A stretch of 34,830 nucleotides of DNA from Anaerolineales bacterium (GCA_025057205.1 JANWXR010000004.1:1-34830); one strand, 5' to 3'. Counted from the stretch's first letter, positions 4,522 through 31,724 are shown. Numbers and translations are program-made. Notes: generated by a model from the letters alone, not told the origin.

Positions 4522-5544
4522 ATGCGCGTTTGGTTCTCCGAGCGCCATCGCCGCCATGCCACCGACCCGATCCGCTTTCATGATGAGCCCTATGCTGAAG
4601 TCCCCGCTCGGGCCGAGCGCATTCGTACAGCGTTGCTGGCGGGTGGATTTACTGACTGGGCCGAGCCTGCCGATCATGGTCAGGCGCCGCTTCTGGCCGT
4701 GCACACTCCTGGCCTGCTCGAGTTCCTCCAGACGATTTATCCTGCCAGCCGGGGTCTGCGCCCGGCTACCGCTTTCTTTCAGGCCGATACTTTCGCAACC
4801 CGCAGTGCGCGCCGCCGCTCGCCGCATCCGTGGGCGCAGGTTGGTTACTACGCCTTCGATATCGAAGCGCCGTTCCTCGAAGGGACGTGGGAGGCCGCTT
4901 ACTGGTCTGCCCAGTGCGCGCTCAGCGCCGCCGACGCCGTGCTCGCCGGCGAATGCGCCGCCTACGCGCTCTGCCGCCCGCCCGGCCATCATGCCCTGGC
5001 CGATCAAATCGGTGGCTTTTGCTACCTGAACAACGCCGCCATCGCCGCGCGCTATCTGCAACAGGGCCGGCCGACTCGCGTTGCCATTTTGGACGTGGAC
5101 TATCATCACGGCAACGGCACGCAGGAAATCTTCTACGCCGACCCGACTGTTTTCTTTGTCTCGCTGCACGCTCACCCCGATATCGAGTACCCGTTCTTCT
5201 GGGGAGGGGCGGAGGAGCGTGGCGAAGGGCCGGGCGCGGGCTTCAACCTGAACCTGCCGCTGCCGCAGGGCACGGGCGATGCCGAATATCTTGCGGCGCT
5301 CGATCAGGCGTTAGCCGCCATCCGCGACTACGCGCCGCGCTACCTTGTCGTCTCGCTGGGGCTGGACATTGCGCAGGGCGACCCGGCTTCGCTGGCCGGC
5401 TTTGCTGTAACTACTGCCGGCTTTCGCGCCATCGGCGAGCGGATTGCGGCGTTGGAGCTGCCGACGCTGATCGTGCAGGAGGGCGGCTATCGGCTGGACA
5501 CGCTGGGTGAGAACGCCGTTGCCTTTCTGCGGGCTTTCCGCTGA
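4522..5544 (+). CDS. Histone deacetylase family protein (acetylpolyamine amidohydrolase-like)
   Basis: RPPGHHA, GGFCYLNNAA, DVDYHHGNGTQ, SLH, SLGLD and QEGGY motifs; AGGAG RBS. Confidence 0.95.
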   Translation: MRVWFSERHRRHATDPIRFHDEPYAEVPARAERIRTALLAGGFTDWAEPADHGQAPLLAVHTPGLLEFLQTIYPASRGLRPATAFFQADTFATRSARRRSPHPWAQVGYYAFDIEAPFLEGTWEAAYWSAQCALSAADAVLAGECAAYALCRPPGHHALADQIGGFCYLNNAAIAARYLQQGRPTRVAILDVDYHHGNGTQEIFYADPTVFFVSLHAHPDIEYPFFWGGAEERGEGPGAGFNLNLPLPQGTGDAEYLAALDQALAAIRDYAPRYLVVSLGLDIAQGDPASLAGFAVTTAGFRAIGERIAALELPTLIVQEGGYRLDTLGENAVAFLRAFR

Positions 5545-5577
5545 GTGAGCGCTCGGCGCAAGGCGAGTTGCTTCTTT

Positions 5578-5770
5578 ACCGCAGAGCGCGCCGAGTGCGT
5601 GGAGATATGACAATAAAGAACGCTGCGCTCTCGTAACTGCTCAGCTGTCCTGATTTATCCGCAGATTACGTAGCTTTTCGCAGAGGCAATCTGTGACCAT
5701 CTGTGACATCTGTGGATTCTTTTCAACGGCTGGAAGCCGTTGCCTGAGCAGTTACGCGCTCTCTTCGGTT
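5578..5770. repeat. Nonamer-periodic palindromic REP-like element interrupted by a MITE
   Basis: ACCGCAGAG CGCGCCGAG TGCGTGGAG ... CTGCGCTCTC[insert]GCGCTCTCTTCGGT; the arms are imperfect inverted repeats. Confidence 0.65.
5633..5755. mobile_element. MITE-A copy 1 (123 bp; 12-bp TIR; 8-bp TSD)
   Basis: GTAACTGCTCAG (5633-5644) ... CTGAGCAGTTAC (5744-5755) is a perfect inverted repeat, flanked by direct repeat GCGCTCTC (5625-5632 and 5756-5763). Internal palindromes ATCCGCAGAT..ATCTGTGGAT and CAACGGC-TGGAA-GCCGTTG. Confidence 0.9.
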
Positions 5771-5794
5771 AGCCCCTCGCCGTAGACTCAAGGA

Positions 5795-5800
5795 TATAAT
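5795..5800 (+). promoter_or_regulatory. -10 box, probable leaderless promoter of the mshA-like gene
   Basis: TATAAT followed by 8 nt and then ATG 5809; no SD in between. Confidence 0.55.
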
Positions 5801-5808
5801 TCCCCGCG

Positions 5809-7173
5809 ATGCGCATCGCCATGCTTTCTTATCACACCTGTCCGCTGGCCACGCTCGGCGGCAAAGACACCGGCGGCATGAACGTCTACGTGCGCGACCT
5901 GACGCGCGAACTGGGACGGCGCGGCCTGCGCGTGGACGTGTTCACCCGCTCTCAGGACGAGCATCAGCCGCACGTCAAAGAAGAGCTGGGCTACGGCAAC
6001 CGCGTCATCCACATCCCGGCCGGGCCGGAAGTGCCGCTGCCCAGAGAAATCCTCTACCAGCACGTTCCCGAGTTCGTCGGCGGCGTGCGCGAGTTTGCGC
6101 GTGCCAACGACCTGCACTACGACGTGATCCACGCCCACTATTGGCTCTCCGGCGTGGCGGCCCGCAGCTTGCGTGAGACTTGGCACATCCCGTTCGTGCT
6201 GATGTTCCATACCCTCGGCCACATGAAGAACCGCGTTGCACAAAGCGAGGCCGAACGCGAGGGCGCGCTGCGCGTGCAGGTGGAGACCGAGCTGATGGCC
6301 CAGGCCGACCGCCTGATTGCAGCGACACCGGCAGAGATTGCACAAATGCAATGGCTCTACGGCGCCGACATCAGCCGCGCCGTCGTCATCCCGCCCGGCG
6401 TGGATTTGAACCTCTTTTATCCGCGCCCGGCCAACGTGGCGAAGCAACGCATCGGCGTGGACCCCGACCGCATCCTGCTCCTCTTCGTCGGGCGCATCGA
6501 GCCGCTCAAGGGCCTGGAGACTCTGCTGCGCGCGCTGGCCGTTCTCAAGGAGCGCGGCGTCTGCCAGTGCAACCAGCTGGCGCTCTCCATCATCGGCGGC
6601 GACCCGGAGGAAGATGCCGCCCAGCGCAATGCAGAGATGGAGCGCATCAAGGCCCTGCGCAGCCGGCTCGGCCTGGAGGGGATGGTGACCTTCCTGGGCA
6701 AACAGGATCAGGACACGCTACCCGATTACTATTCCGCCGCCGACGCCGTCGTGATGCCGTCGCACTACGAGTCCTTCGGGATGGTGGCGCTGGAGGCGAT
6801 GGCCTGCGGTACACCCGTCATCGCCTCCGAAGTGGGCGGGTTGGCCTTCCTGGTCAAGGACGGCGAGACAGGTTTCCACGTGCCGGACCGCGACCCGGAG
6901 GCGCTGGCCGACCGCATCTGCGACATCATCACCGACCCGCTGCTGCGCGCGAAACTGGGCGGCCAGGCGGCGGAGTACGCGCGCAGTTACTGCTGGCCGC
7001 TCATCGCCGATAAAATCATCGCAGTTTATCGCGAACTACACACAGGCCGTGCACCGGCCTGGCTGGAGCGAAGAGGCAAGGCGCACGATGGTGCCGCCCT
7101 TACCAGCGAAACAGCCTCCGCATCACCCGATCCCACACCGCGTCCGGCAGGAAACGGCGCAGCAGTATATTGA
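5809..7173 (+). CDS. mshA: MshA-like GT4 glycosyltransferase (D-inositol-3-phosphate glycosyltransferase family)
   Basis: MRIAMLSYHTCPLATLGGKDTGGMNVYV, HAHYWLSG, MFHTLG, FVGRIEPLKG and PSHYESFGMVALEAMACG match the MshA subfamily; substrate not proven. Confidence 0.8.
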   Translation: MRIAMLSYHTCPLATLGGKDTGGMNVYVRDLTRELGRRGLRVDVFTRSQDEHQPHVKEELGYGNRVIHIPAGPEVPLPREILYQHVPEFVGGVREFARANDLHYDVIHAHYWLSGVAARSLRETWHIPFVLMFHTLGHMKNRVAQSEAEREGALRVQVETELMAQADRLIAATPAEIAQMQWLYGADISRAVVIPPGVDLNLFYPRPANVAKQRIGVDPDRILLLFVGRIEPLKGLETLLRALAVLKERGVCQCNQLALSIIGGDPEEDAAQRNAEMERIKALRSRLGLEGMVTFLGKQDQDTLPDYYSAADAVVMPSHYESFGMVALEAMACGTPVIASEVGGLAFLVKDGETGFHVPDRDPEALADRICDIITDPLLRAKLGGQAAEYARSYCWPLIADKIIAVYRELHTGRAPAWLERRGKAHDGAALTSETASASPDPTPRPAGNGAAVY

Positions 7174-7963: not shown

Positions 7964-10375
7964 TCATTTCCCGATTTGAAACTCCACCCACTTCTTTCGC
8001 AGCCAATACGCACTACGCGATACGTAGCATGTTGCAGTCAACGCGCTCACCACAAGTCCCACCGACCACGTCCACGGCTCAAAGCGCATCTCAACGATGT
8101 GTTCGCCCGGCTCGGCTAGCGGCACGGCGCGGAAGGCAAAGTTGGCACGTAGCACTTCCACCTCGACCCCATTCACCCAGGCGCGCCAGCCGGGATACCA
8201 CACTTCGCTCAGCACCAGGTAGGCTGGGGCCGGCGTGCTCACAGCGATGCGGTAGGCCTCCGGCGAATAGTGCAGGTAGTAAAGATTTGAGTTCGGGGGT
8301 TGAAGGTCGGGCAGCGGCAGAAGCGCAGACGTTTCCAGCACGACCTCCCGTGTGGGGTCGAAGTCGGGCGCCACGATTGCGGCGAAGGCGGCCTCGCCAT
8401 CTGGCACTGCCCGCGCCGCGTACTTCAGGCTGATTCGCGGCTGCGCGTTGGTGTTCAGCCAGATGTCCACGCCGGGGTCGTCGTTGAAGACGGGGACGAT
8501 GTCCGGGTCGTCGGCGGGCGGCCGGTCTTTGGCGGCTACAATCCACTGCGCGCCGAGGAAGTCGTAGCGCGGCGCACCACGCGGCCCCATCGAGCCGATG
8601 TAGGTCTGATAAGCCGCCAGCACCAGCGGATTGCTCACCCCGCCGATGTCCTCCAACCCGTGCCGCGCTGCCGCGTCCGGCGCCCAGGCGCCCGTGGTCG
8701 AGTCAATGCGCGTCGGGCCGGGCCGGCTCTTCAGGTAACCAACGGCAACGGGATGTTGGAAGCCGAGCGTCGGGTCGGCGAAGTCCACCTCGACGAACGC
8801 GCCGTGGAAGAACAGGTCGGCGGCGAGGACGATGATGGCGAAGGCGGGGGCGAGGGAGGATAGAGAGTAGCGAGTAGAAAGTAGTAAGTAGGCGGCGAGG
8901 AGCAGGGCGAGGGTTACGGCCAAAGTCCAGAGCAGGTTCGATACCCGCTCTCCGGCTGGCGCTACGACAAGATATGCAATGACCAAGATTGCTACAGCCA
9001 CAACGCCAAATCCGGCAACCCATCGCCCTCTCTCTTTGCACTCCGCGTTCTCTGGGGTGAACACTCTCTGAAAGCCGAAGCCCGCCAGCACGGCCAGCCC
9101 CAGGTCGGTCAGCAGAACAAACCGCGCCGGCGCGCGCATTTGCGCAAAGCCGGGGACGAACTCGTAGAGCAAGCGATGCAGCGGCGTGTTCTCGCCGAGG
9201 GCGATGAGCAGGCTGAGGAAAGCAAGGGTTGCCCAGAACCCTTGGGTGCTGAGTCGGTGACCGGGTGAGTGAGCGATGAGGTGAGTGGAGCCGCTGTGCG
9301 AAGTTGTTGTGCCGGGCCTCTCAATCAAGGCGATGCCGGCGAAGACGAGCGGCAGCATGCCCAGGTAGCCCAGCTCAACGCGCAGCCACGGCCCCCAGTA
9401 ATCCGCGGCGCCGCGCCCGAAGAGCAGCGGTGAGACGAATCCGGCCAGCCCCGCCCAGGGCAGGGAGTACAGCGCGGCTTCGGGGTACCTCAGCCGCGCG
9501 CGCGCCGTGTACTGGGTCAGCTCAAGCGCCGGCAGCAACGCCAGGGCGCTCAGGCCGAGGGCGGCGAGGAAGACGAGGCTGAGGAGAATCGCAGAGCGTA
9601 TTGCGTATTTCGTATTCCGTTCACGCAACACGCAATACGCTATACGCCATACTCCCATACAGCCTATTGCCCCAAAGCTTATCAGCATCATCTGCGCGTG
9701 GCCGGCCAGCGCAGCGATGCTCAGCACCGCGCCTGCGGCCAGCGCCCAGTTCACGCTGCGGCGCGTCAGGCTGAGATGCAAACAGGCCAGCGCCAGCGGC
9801 AGCCAGGCCGACACCGCGACGATGTTCAGGTTGCCGATGTGCGTGACCAGGACATCGGAGAACATGAAGGCGACGGCGGCAAAAATAGAAGGAAGAAGGA
9901 AGAAGGAAGAAGGTGGAAAGAAGGGAGAAGGAAGAGGGTGGAAGGTTGAGGTTGGAGTGGCGTGAGCGCCCGCTTTAGTGTTCTCTTGCGTGCCGAGTAG
10001 GACTCGCATTAATACATACATCGAAGCGCCGGCCAGCCAGAAGTGAAAGACCACCAGCCATTCGATAGCGCGGTAGGGGAAAGAGGGCGCCAGCGCGAAG
10101 GCGAGCAGGTTGGGGGGGTAGAACAGGCCGCTCTGGTTATCGGCGGCGAAGGGCATGCCGGCGTAGAGCGTCTCGTTCCACAGCGGAATGCGCCCGCTCC
10201 ATAGCGCACGCGCTGCGTACGAGTACGTCGGCCAGAGGAAGGAGGCCAGGTCACCGCCGCCGCGCGGGATCCACGCCACGCCCAGCGTCACCGGCCAGAA
10301 GAAGATAAGCGCCAGGCCCGCCAGCGCCGCCAGCGCGATCCAGTCATGACGATGCCGGCGAAGCCAGACACCCAT
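7964..10375 (-). CDS. YfhO-like multi-pass membrane protein (GT-C glycosyltransferase-like)
   Basis: GDLASFLWP..GRIPLWNETLYAGMPFAADNQSGLFYPP, many TM segments, RAPARF, and C-terminal YLVLSEVWYPGWRAWVNG..RANFAFRAV..GEHIVEMRFEP typical of YfhO. Confidence 0.88.
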   Translation of the reverse strand: MGVWLRRHRHDWIALAALAGLALIFFWPVTLGVAWIPRGGGDLASFLWPTYSYAARALWSGRIPLWNETLYAGMPFAADNQSGLFYPPNLLAFALAPSFPYRAIEWLVVFHFWLAGASMYVLMRVLLGTQENTKAGAHATPTSTFHPLPSPFFPPSSFFLLPSIFAAVAFMFSDVLVTHIGNLNIVAVSAWLPLALACLHLSLTRRSVNWALAAGAVLSIAALAGHAQMMLISFGAIGCMGVWRIAYCVLRERNTKYAIRSAILLSLVFLAALGLSALALLPALELTQYTARARLRYPEAALYSLPWAGLAGFVSPLLFGRGAADYWGPWLRVELGYLGMLPLVFAGIALIERPGTTTSHSGSTHLIAHSPGHRLSTQGFWATLAFLSLLIALGENTPLHRLLYEFVPGFAQMRAPARFVLLTDLGLAVLAGFGFQRVFTPENAECKERGRWVAGFGVVAVAILVIAYLVVAPAGERVSNLLWTLAVTLALLLAAYLLLSTRYSLSSLAPAFAIIVLAADLFFHGAFVEVDFADPTLGFQHPVAVGYLKSRPGPTRIDSTTGAWAPDAAARHGLEDIGGVSNPLVLAAYQTYIGSMGPRGAPRYDFLGAQWIVAAKDRPPADDPDIVPVFNDDPGVDIWLNTNAQPRISLKYAARAVPDGEAAFAAIVAPDFDPTREVVLETSALLPLPDLQPPNSNLYYLHYSPEAYRIAVSTPAPAYLVLSEVWYPGWRAWVNGVEVEVLRANFAFRAVPLAEPGEHIVEMRFEPWTWSVGLVVSALTATCYVSRSAYWLRKKWVEFQIGK
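8861..8891. repeat. Heptamer tandem repeat inside the YfhO-like CDS
   Basis: TAGAGAG TAGCGAG TAGAAAG TAGTAAG TAG, encoding YLLLSTRYSLS. Confidence 0.75.
9596..9660. repeat. Palindromic heptamer repeat (GCGTATT/AATACGC) inside the YfhO-like CDS
   Basis: GCGTATT GCGTATT TCGTATT CCGT..ACGC AACACGC AATACGC TATACGC CATACTC; the same family is intergenic at 24551-24607. Confidence 0.85.
9887..9955. repeat. AGAAGGA heptamer tandem repeat inside the YfhO-like CDS
   Basis: AGAAGGA x3, AGAAGGT..AGAAGGG AGAAGGA AGAGGGT GGAAGGT, encoding STFHPLPSPFFPPSSFFLLPS. Confidence 0.85.
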
Positions 10376-16410: not shown

Positions 16411-16533
16411 GTCAATGCTCCGCTATCCTGATTGAGCCACAGATGTCGCAGATTTTTGCGGAAAAGAGTCTGTGACTATCTGCGATGTTTGTGGAATCTC
16501 CAGCCCATCGGCGATTATGGCCTGAGACGTTGT
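16411..16533. mobile_element. MITE-A copy 2 (degenerate, 123 bp) inside a nonamer REP-like element (~16387-16597)
   Basis: GTCAATGCTCCGCTATCCTGATTGAGCC resembles GTAACTGCTCAGCTGTCCTGATTTATCC; right end CTGAGACGTTGT; shared core TCTGTGACYATCTGYGAYRTYTGTGGA; TSD GGATGCGA/GGATGCAA; same length as copy 1. Confidence 0.82.
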
Positions 16534-28408: not shown

Positions 28409-28528
28409 GACTCCAGTGCAAAAACTATGATCTCACCGCGAAGCCGCGAAGGGCGCAAAGGCTTTGCTCCTGTTTTCCTTAGCGTTCTTGGCGTCTTCGC
28501 GGTTCACATGGACTTTTTTCAGTAGAAC
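28409..28528. mobile_element. Degenerate MITE-C carrying a nonamer palindromic REP-like element
   Basis: Left GACTCCAGTGCAAAAACT versus reverse-complemented right GTTCTACTGAAAAAAGT; flanks CACAACAT/CGCAACAT (7 of 8). Cargo ACCGCGAAG CCGCGAAG GGCGCAAAG ... CTTAGCGTT CTTGGCGT CTTCGCGGT (28435-28503). Confidence 0.55.
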
Positions 28529-28565
28529 CGCAACATGCAATACGGAATGCGCAGCGCTTAGCCCC

Positions 28566-30413: not shown

Positions 30414-31724
<1,311 letters not shown>

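Follow-up and report, generated by a model that had tools for sequence, protein, structure and literature searches.

Background

The spacer between two co-directional genes of an Anaerolineales bacterium raises the questions of how many mobile layers it holds, how long they have been there and which transposase may have moved them. The window, by which we mean the whole stretch of 34,830 nt that was analysed, belongs to a 2.48-Mb Anaerolineales MAG of 715 contigs and 64% completeness (G000). In the initial annotation the spacer was read as a nest of three layers, with a palindrome inside a recently inserted TIR/TSD MITE, itself inside a REP-like palindrome.

Results

Anatomy and boundaries of the element

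The features of the locus are listed below, with positions counted from the first letter of the window.

4522-5544, + strand: histone-deacetylase-family protein gene, 340 aa, with stop codon TGA at 5542-5544 (Pfam PF00850, E 2.2e-73)
5542-5632, no strand: outer GC-rich palindrome, left part and beginning of right arm, from the computed pre-insertion fold
5625-5632, no strand: left TSD GCGCTCTC (8 bp), within the right arm of the outer palindrome
5633-5755, + strand: MITE of subfamily A, 123 bp, with termini of probable ISBst12-group / IS66-family type (from family census, TSDs, shared termini and contig loose ends)
5633-5644, + strand: left TIR GTAACTGCTCAG, equal to the TIRs of full-length single-ORF IS66-family elements and to one ISDge4 TIR
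5657-5717, + strand: central three-module palindrome, ATCCGCAGAT / TACGTAGCT / TTCGCAGA, loop, TCTGTGACC / ATCTGTGAC / ATCTGTGGAT (from the fold)
5724-5742, + strand: small hairpin CAACGGCT-GGA-AGCCGTTG, found in subfamily A only and the least conserved part of the element
5744-5755, - strand: right TIR, CTGAGCAGTTAC on the + strand, complement of GTAACTGCTCAG
5756-5763, no strand: right TSD GCGCTCTC (8 bp), the second copy of the octamer
5764-5790, no strand: rest of the right arm of the outer palindrome (TTCGGT 5764-5769, CTCGCC 5776-5781, ACTCA 5786-5790)
5795-5800, + strand: TATAAT hexamer, 8 nt before the ATG at 5809 and outside the MITE
5809-7173, + strand: GT4-family glycosyltransferase gene, 454 aa (Pfam PF00534, E 4.9e-45, and PF13439)

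The 123-bp element, its perfect 12-bp TIR GTAACTGCTCAG and the perfect 8-bp TSD GCGCTCTC were all found where the initial annotation had placed them, as were the periodic palindrome (5657-5717) and the small hairpin (5724-5742) described within it. The TIRs agree at 12 of 12 positions, or over 13 nt when the adjoining C/G is counted, and the units of the central palindrome, CGCAGA and TCTGTG, recur at a spacing of 9-10 nt. With up to one mismatch the TIR 12-mer is found at two places in the window, where 0.08 would be expected, and two or more were not reached in any of 100 shuffles; by our own arithmetic an 8/8 match of the octamers has a chance probability of about 1.5e-5. Further, contigs from three public hot-spring metagenome runs (two studies) show loose ends with unrelated flanks that cluster exactly at 5633 and 5755, hence the boundaries of the element are fixed independently.

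The ORF list held no frame of 50 aa or more inside the 123 bp, so the element is short and non-coding. Its + strand is predicted to fold at -52.9 kcal/mol, and an Rfam search over window positions 5300-6000 gave no match at E up to 5.

A multi-copy family with differing target duplications

The initial annotation had proposed looking for further copies in the genome, and there are many. Against its own genome the element gave 43 BLAST matches, or 83 HSPs with a more sensitive BLAST, and a profile built from 21 copies (nhmmer) returned 113 hits, corresponding to 87 distinct loci of which 27 are full-length. Together these loci, which are spread over 70 of the 715 contigs, account for 0.31% of the assembly.

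A scan of G000 for paired termini detected 31 pairs, 28 of them short (93-337 bp). Perfect 8-bp TSDs, every one of a different sequence, flank 13 of the 28 short pairs, and 16 of the 28 have TSDs with at most one mismatch; the classification as a TIR/TSD MITE is thereby upheld. The kilobase-scale pairs, on contigs C11, C67 and C477, were rejected as chance pairs because of their 5-7 TSD mismatches and 2-mismatch ends.

Across the 27 full-length copies the conservation of the TIRs is 0.90. Seven copies linked at 90% identity or more form a subfamily-B cluster, and six of these are 97.6-99.2% identical to their nearest relative. The window carries one further member of the family, which has decayed termini and is about 79% identical to its nearest paralogue:

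16413-16531, + strand: second family copy, degenerate, of subfamily B type (blastn; nhmmer E 3.6e-22)

Relative to co-directional flanking genes, nine copies have the same and seven the opposite orientation, hence no bias on what are crude gene calls. Full copies within 25 bp of a TRF array numbered 6 of 25, as against 7.6% of random crude-intergenic positions, a mild excess that depends on rough gene calls.

The distribution of the family is patchy. It was detected in 5 of 41 close relatives and, at E <=1e-10, in 6 of 301 genomes of the order, three of the six being from another family. One of the latter (G025, 97% complete) holds two identical 123-bp copies, at C37:21770-21892 and C15:96394-96516 (L031 and L035), both with perfect termini and each with its own 8-bp TSD (GTTTCATG and CAACAAGC).

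Termini shared with single-ORF IS66-family elements

According to the initial annotation the window holds no transposase with matching ends, which agrees with our domain search, where the sole IS66 DDE match in G000 lay elsewhere, at C310:13534-14325. About 110 bp upstream of this match, at C310:13425, stands GTAACTACTCAG, a variant of the terminus that also occurs in MITE copies; with 71 such sites genome-wide, we calculate a chance of about 0.006 for one to fall within 200 bp of the DDE match. The stretch C310:13425-14795 is a decayed ISBst12-type element in which the left terminus abuts the DDE domain, with no DUF6444 or zinc-finger part at the N-terminus. The frame is lost past the NNQAERDLRMLKV motif, and the 3' end is truncated. 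An E2b-like element (see below) follows this remnant at about C310:14494-14630.

No intact IS66-type transposase was found in G000, at a completeness (64%) that does not establish absence. The sister genome G001 (82% complete) gave an IS66 transposase fragment only, and in G025, at 97% completeness, no IS66 transposase was detected despite the two identical MITE copies.

With the C310 transposase as query, 80 loci were retrieved from public genomes. In 57 of these, from many phyla, the MITE termini (<=2 mismatches) bracket the transposase 1.35-1.8 kb apart. Both flanks could be tested for 52 full-length elements, and perfect 8-bp TSDs were present in 30 of them, or 33 when one mismatch is allowed. 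Two of the 57 (L049 and L044) have one ORF, of 489 or 500 aa, that fills the element of about 1.57 kb and comprises DUF6444, zf-IS66 and DDE_Tnp_IS66 domains; Pfam PF03050 scored above its cut-off, and NCBIfam NF033517, whose cut-off is 180 bits, identifies the product with 305-318 bits as an IS66 family transposase. Neither element has the accessory ORFs known from classical IS66.

The excerpted text of a 2026 publication describes ISDge4 of Deinococcus geothermalis, a member of the ISBst12 group of the IS66 family, with TIRs GTGACTACTCAGCA / GTAACTGCTCAGCA, an 8-bp DR CCTCGATG and a single transposase of 449 aa (PMC12898284). The window TIR is identical to one of these two published TIRs (PMC12898284). 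As the same ends thus occur in 57 of 80 IS66 loci and in ISDge4, it seems that the window element uses ISBst12-type ends; the assignment to the ISBst12 group would follow from the architecture of the elements and the TIRs given in this one paper.

The likeness stops at the ends. When the 27 full copies were compared by BLAST with the 57 full-length elements, the terminal 12-17 nt were found in common and nothing more, since the 45 internal HSPs were all of 12-16 nt with E of 0.008 or worse. We also considered that the MITE might be a deletion derivative, and rejected this: the match is restricted to the terminal 12-17 nt, and the window copy shares nothing beyond 8-nt words with the C310 remnant. 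Hence the MITE is not a simple deletion derivative.

The central palindrome belongs to the family

The central palindrome was put forward as a separate nested layer, a view that the family does not bear out. It is present in 27 of 27 full-length copies, at the same position in both subfamilies and with no surrounding duplication, and the outermost units of this core are conserved like the TIRs (0.91 and 0.94 compared with 0.90). As all full-length copies of both subfamilies carry it, we regard the palindrome as a component of the master sequence, not as something inserted later. The small hairpin differs between the subfamilies and has a conservation of 0.67. Among the 57 full-length IS elements compared, none was seen to have the periodic palindrome interior.

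Summed over the 27 copies, the pairs of the central palindrome are 453 Watson-Crick, 77 G:T and 16 A:C, and those of the TIR stem include 14 G:T and 20 A:C. The G:T excess comes mainly from four positions that switch between Watson-Crick and G:T pairing, and it may have been inherited from master copies.

The outer palindrome and the neighbouring genes

To obtain the pre-insertion spacer, the element and one TSD were deleted by script and the remainder was folded. The result is a long GC-rich palindrome over about 5542-5790, or about 118 bp without the insertion. As this fold puts the TSD in the right arm, the description of the element as inserted into the right arm of a nonamer-periodic palindrome is correct. 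The inner pairing joins ACCG.CAGAGCGC (5578-5589) with GCGCTCTC..CGGT, and the distal pairs are GGCGAG (5562-5567) with CTCGCC and TGAGT (5542-5546) with ACTCA. The left arm consists of three nonamers, CCGCAGAGC / GCGCCGAGT / GCGTGGAGA (5579-5605), and is followed by an A/T-rich loop. The right arm is kept in G001 and missing from G003, a further relative.

Within G000, 32 sites match the 17-nt core of the outer palindrome with at most two mismatches, and its loose relatives on C654 and C672 have core and loop in common with it, yet it aligns poorly to any tight repeat family. Membership of the E2b family described below was rejected because the alignment is poor and the resemblance limited to core units. 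The label REP-like, too, has to be largely given up: there is no GTAG or CGTC head, and a search for PF01797 (RAYT / Y1 transposase) gave no matches in the 64%-complete G000. The outer palindrome is REP-like in the loosest sense only.

Further, the element had been placed about 40 bp upstream of the -10 box of an mshA-like gene. A TATAAT hexamer on the + strand does lie 39 nt from the end of the element, and the gene behind it could be assigned to the GT4 family and no further. A consensus scan found no -35 match for the hexamer and no full sigma-70-type site. G003, which is free of the MITE, shares GGATATAATT before the ATG, the rest of the spacer being unalignable. As the hexamer is kept in this relative and stands 39 nt beyond the element, we regard the core promoter as native and undisturbed. 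Located in the window segment 5795-5811 and only 8 nt from the glycosyltransferase ATG, the hexamer would fit a leaderless or near-leaderless transcript. A scan revealed no terminator-like site within the element and two weak terminator-like hairpins outside it. The element lies between its two neighbours, and the effect of the insertion on them was probably close to neutral.

Age of the insertion and empty sites

The perfect ends had been interpreted as a sign of recent insertion. G001 aligns to window positions 4900-6500 across all 1601 nt at 95% identity, MITE included, and the orthologous copy is 97% identical; it retains the two octamers unaltered and shows a single change in its left terminus. 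The nearest paralogue of the window copy, on the other hand, is just 87% identical. A copy at the orthologous site of G001 makes the insertion older than the split between G000 and G001, and the perfect ends are no proof of recency; the comparison indicates an old, fixed insertion.

A direct view of the unoccupied target was obtained at a paralogous site. The copy at C333:25656-25778 reads GGCCGTAG-MITE-GGCCGTAG in G000, against a single GGCTGCGG between alignable flanks in G003. As to the window copy itself, G001 has the element at the site, and G002 and G004 lack synteny there; in G003 the same two genes are adjacent, separated by an unalignable spacer of about 85 bp without the element and without the outer palindrome. 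An empty site with a single GCGCTCTC was not found among the relatives, no contig of the three metagenome runs skips the element, and scans of metagenome contigs for such a site gave no matches.

Short-period repeats and E2 elements in the genome

In the 2.48 Mb of G000, TRF reported 633 arrays whose period is 8-10 and whose copy number is 2.5 or more. The main units are CACGAATG(NN), ACGGATG(N), CACAGATG and CACAGATGG, and many of the arrays are arranged as palindromes within intergenic spacers.

A second family of small elements, E2, of about 120 bp, has termini of the type GAGTSCACTGAAAAAA...TTTTTKCAGTGGAGTC. In G000 there are 28 HSPs for E2a, spread over 24 contigs, and 110 for E2b, spread over 88, and no long coding copy was found. 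E2 elements insert into the repeat units named above with duplications of 7-8 bp; those around E2b resemble (C)ACGGATG or ACGAATG, and E2b itself contains a periodic palindrome of CCGCGAAGA/GCGCTCTTCGCGG. MITE variants of about 220-250 bp consist of the 123-bp element with E2a or E2b nested in ATCTGTGAC units of the central palindrome, and these are true nested insertions, in contrast to the window copy. The copies concerned are:

28409-28529 of the window, - strand: E2b copy (E2 family match)
C666:26378-26627, C219:433-683, C432:610-851, C555:~31200-31420, C120:1781-2030 and C684:8740-8958 of G000: MITE variants with a nested E2 element

Nonamer palindromes in other phyla

The exact 21-mer of the right arm of the MITE's palindrome occurs at 20 loci in a collection of species-representative genomes. 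Eleven of these, outside one Anaerolineales MAG, have no ISBst12 termini near the core; they belong to Isosphaeraceae, Gemmataceae, Verrucomicrobiales, Holophagae, Chthonomonadales, a gammaproteobacterium and two other Chloroflexota. The 21-mer had no matches in viral contigs, and the core sequence was not found in the literature searched.

Three repeats of CACAGATGN, corresponding to CACAGATG units at 9-nt spacing, were found at 120 or more loci from many phyla. Among 80 such loci examined, of which a few are probably coding repeats, 16 are palindromic with an inverted partner within 150 nt, and in some of the palindromes from Chromatiaceae nearly every unit has its match in the MITE core. 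Nonamer arrays and palindromes of the CACAGATG type without transposon ends are thus seen in many phyla (L142-L161, L162-L241), the palindromes in Planctomycetota, Acidobacteriota, Verrucomicrobiota, Chromatiaceae and other groups. One locus from Isosphaeraceae (L149) has a CGCAGAG-type palindrome around a CACAGATG-type one, the unit types of the outer and the inner palindrome of the window.

The outermost unit of several cross-phylum palindromes is the canonical DnaA box or close to it, and the outer units of the MITE match it at 7-9 of 9 positions. Perfect TGTGGATAA boxes number 23 in G000, compared with 6.4 expected genome-wide from base composition, and are densest around dnaA, where three of the 23 flank the gene on both sides (C455:6043-6072 and 8311-8341; L282). 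An E2b copy at C455:6686-6806 stands just upstream of the dnaA reading frame. We regard the resemblance of the palindrome units to DnaA boxes as a lead and not as a finding.

Discussion

Preferred reading and alternatives

We consider it very probable that window positions 5633-5755 are a non-autonomous MITE with the TIRs of single-ORF IS66-family elements of the ISBst12 type, which was supplied with transposase in trans and is an old copy. The termini and duplications, the multi-copy family, the sharing of termini with coding elements and the empty site of a paralogue are direct observations, and to these we add, by inference, mobilisation in trans and the geometry of cleavage. An ISBst12-group DDE transposase provided in trans would recognise the 12-14-bp termini (GTAACTGCTCAGSC) and join them to target DNA that has been cleaved with a stagger of 8 bp, repair of which would yield the 8-bp duplication, here GCGCTCTC. 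The copy would have landed in the right arm of an older GC-rich nonamer palindrome that filled the deacetylase-GT4 spacer, before the split from the sister genome. Its interior, a conserved three-module CRCAGAT palindrome with a variable small hairpin, does not appear to stem from a transposase-bearing element, and the palindrome would mainly serve to fold the element and bring both ends together. The family may now be immobile in G000, where a decayed transposase remnant only was found; alternatively, an intact transposase copy may reside in the unassembled 36% of the genome.

It is unlikely, in our judgement, that the spacer holds a true nest of three layers. The inner palindrome would then be a mobile or functional module in its own right, which moved into an ISBst12-type MITE or was captured by it, and this MITE would later have entered a third palindromic element. 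That nonamer modules occur without ISBst12 termini in other phyla (11 of 20 loci of the 21-mer), that 16 of 80 examined loci out of at least 120 with three CACAGATGN repeats are palindromic, that the interior of the MITE has no counterpart in the 57 full-length elements and that E2 does nest within some MITE copies all speak for such a history. Yet the position of the palindrome is identical in all full-length copies of G000, whichever the subfamily, and no duplication flanks it, hence a capture, if there was one, was a single event when the family arose and did not take place in the window copy; moreover, the mobility of the stand-alone palindromes is without support, and the outer palindrome aligns loosely to other repeats. 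A more specific version, which we find doubtful, makes the MITE core a member of the cross-phylum CACAGATG-type palindromes, an independent functional module captured and spread through Anaerolineales by the ISBst12-type MITE. If this were true, the palindromes could be a protein-binding or DnaA-titrating array or, alternatively, the preferred landing pad of E2 elements, and the one-sided G:T excess would point to a hairpin with a function in single-stranded form.

Transposase families such as IS1595, ISL3 and IS256 also give 8-bp duplications, and one of them might move the element, the match to IS66 ends being coincidental. No intact IS66-type transposase was seen in G000, G001 or G025, as such a scenario would have it, but coincidence is hard to reconcile with a 12-mer terminus that stands (<=2 mismatches) on either side of the gene in 57 of the 80 IS66-family loci, which come from many phyla, with a decayed IS66 transposase in G000 itself that starts with the same terminus and with the identity to one ISDge4 TIR in the excerpted PMC12898284, and we give this scenario very little credence. 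Nor do we believe, except at the very margin, that the element is a gene for a structured RNA, dispersed through the genome, or else a host element of REP type, with inverted ends that form the base of a stem and are not those of a transposon. The differing target duplications of the copies and the empty site of a paralogue argue against it, as do the absence of any Rfam match at E up to 5, the lack of orientation bias (9 against 7, on crude gene calls) and the failure to find a Y1/RAYT transposase in a genome that is 64% complete. The stable predicted fold of the + strand (-52.9 kcal/mol) would suit such a gene, and the 77 G:T against 16 A:C pairs of the central hairpin, compared with 14 against 20 in the TIR stem, would fit a structure read on one strand; this excess, however, is due for the most part to four positions and may go back to master copies.

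Consequences for annotation

The interpretation as an old ISBst12-type MITE has some practical bearing. A repeat family that breaks assemblies of hot-spring Anaerolineales MAGs is now tied to a named IS group. Perfect ends do not prove a young insertion. The MITE persists in genomes without an assembled intact transposase, and in G025 it apparently still multiplied. Of wider interest are the hundreds of arrays and palindromes of 8-10-nt period, one type of which is found across phyla and also forms the core of a MITE.

Comparison with known systems

REP and BIME elements are described, in the parts of PMC3733652 consulted, as imperfect palindromes of 20-40 nt with a GTAG or CGTC head and high copy number. 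The outer palindrome resembles them in being extragenic, GC-rich and imperfect, in starting right after a stop codon and in having relatives elsewhere in the genome; it differs in its length of about 118 bp, its 9-nt units, its lack of a head, the looseness of its relatives and the absence of a detected Y1/RAYT transposase.

With the ISBst12 group and ISDge4 the window element shares GTAACT[G/A]CTCAG termini and an 8-bp target duplication, following the excerpt of PMC12898284. The ISBst12-type relatives that we fetched are about 1.5-1.6 kb long with a single IS66-type DDE ORF, whereas the window element has 123 bp and is non-coding; it shares with these coding elements the terminal 12-17 nt only, and its interior is a periodic palindrome.

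Bacterial MITEs such as Correia, RUP, ERIC, Nezha and Chunjie are reviewed in PMC3184786. On the points covered by the available portion of that review, the window element is like them small and non-coding, with IS-matching TIRs, TSD flanks and many copies, and like them it has a stable predicted fold and an intergenic position (PMC3184786). Identity with Nezha was rejected because the Nezha copy cited in the extract of PMC6042816 has a 10-bp DR, against 8 bp here. Our literature searches returned no link between ISBst12 or Anaerolineae and MITEs, and two papers in which IS66 and MITEs are both mentioned contain no description of an IS66-derived MITE. The window element is tied to a different IS group than the other bacterial MITEs: MITEs with IS ends are known and none of the ISBst12 type was found described in the literature searched, hence what is new here is an ISBst12-type MITE.
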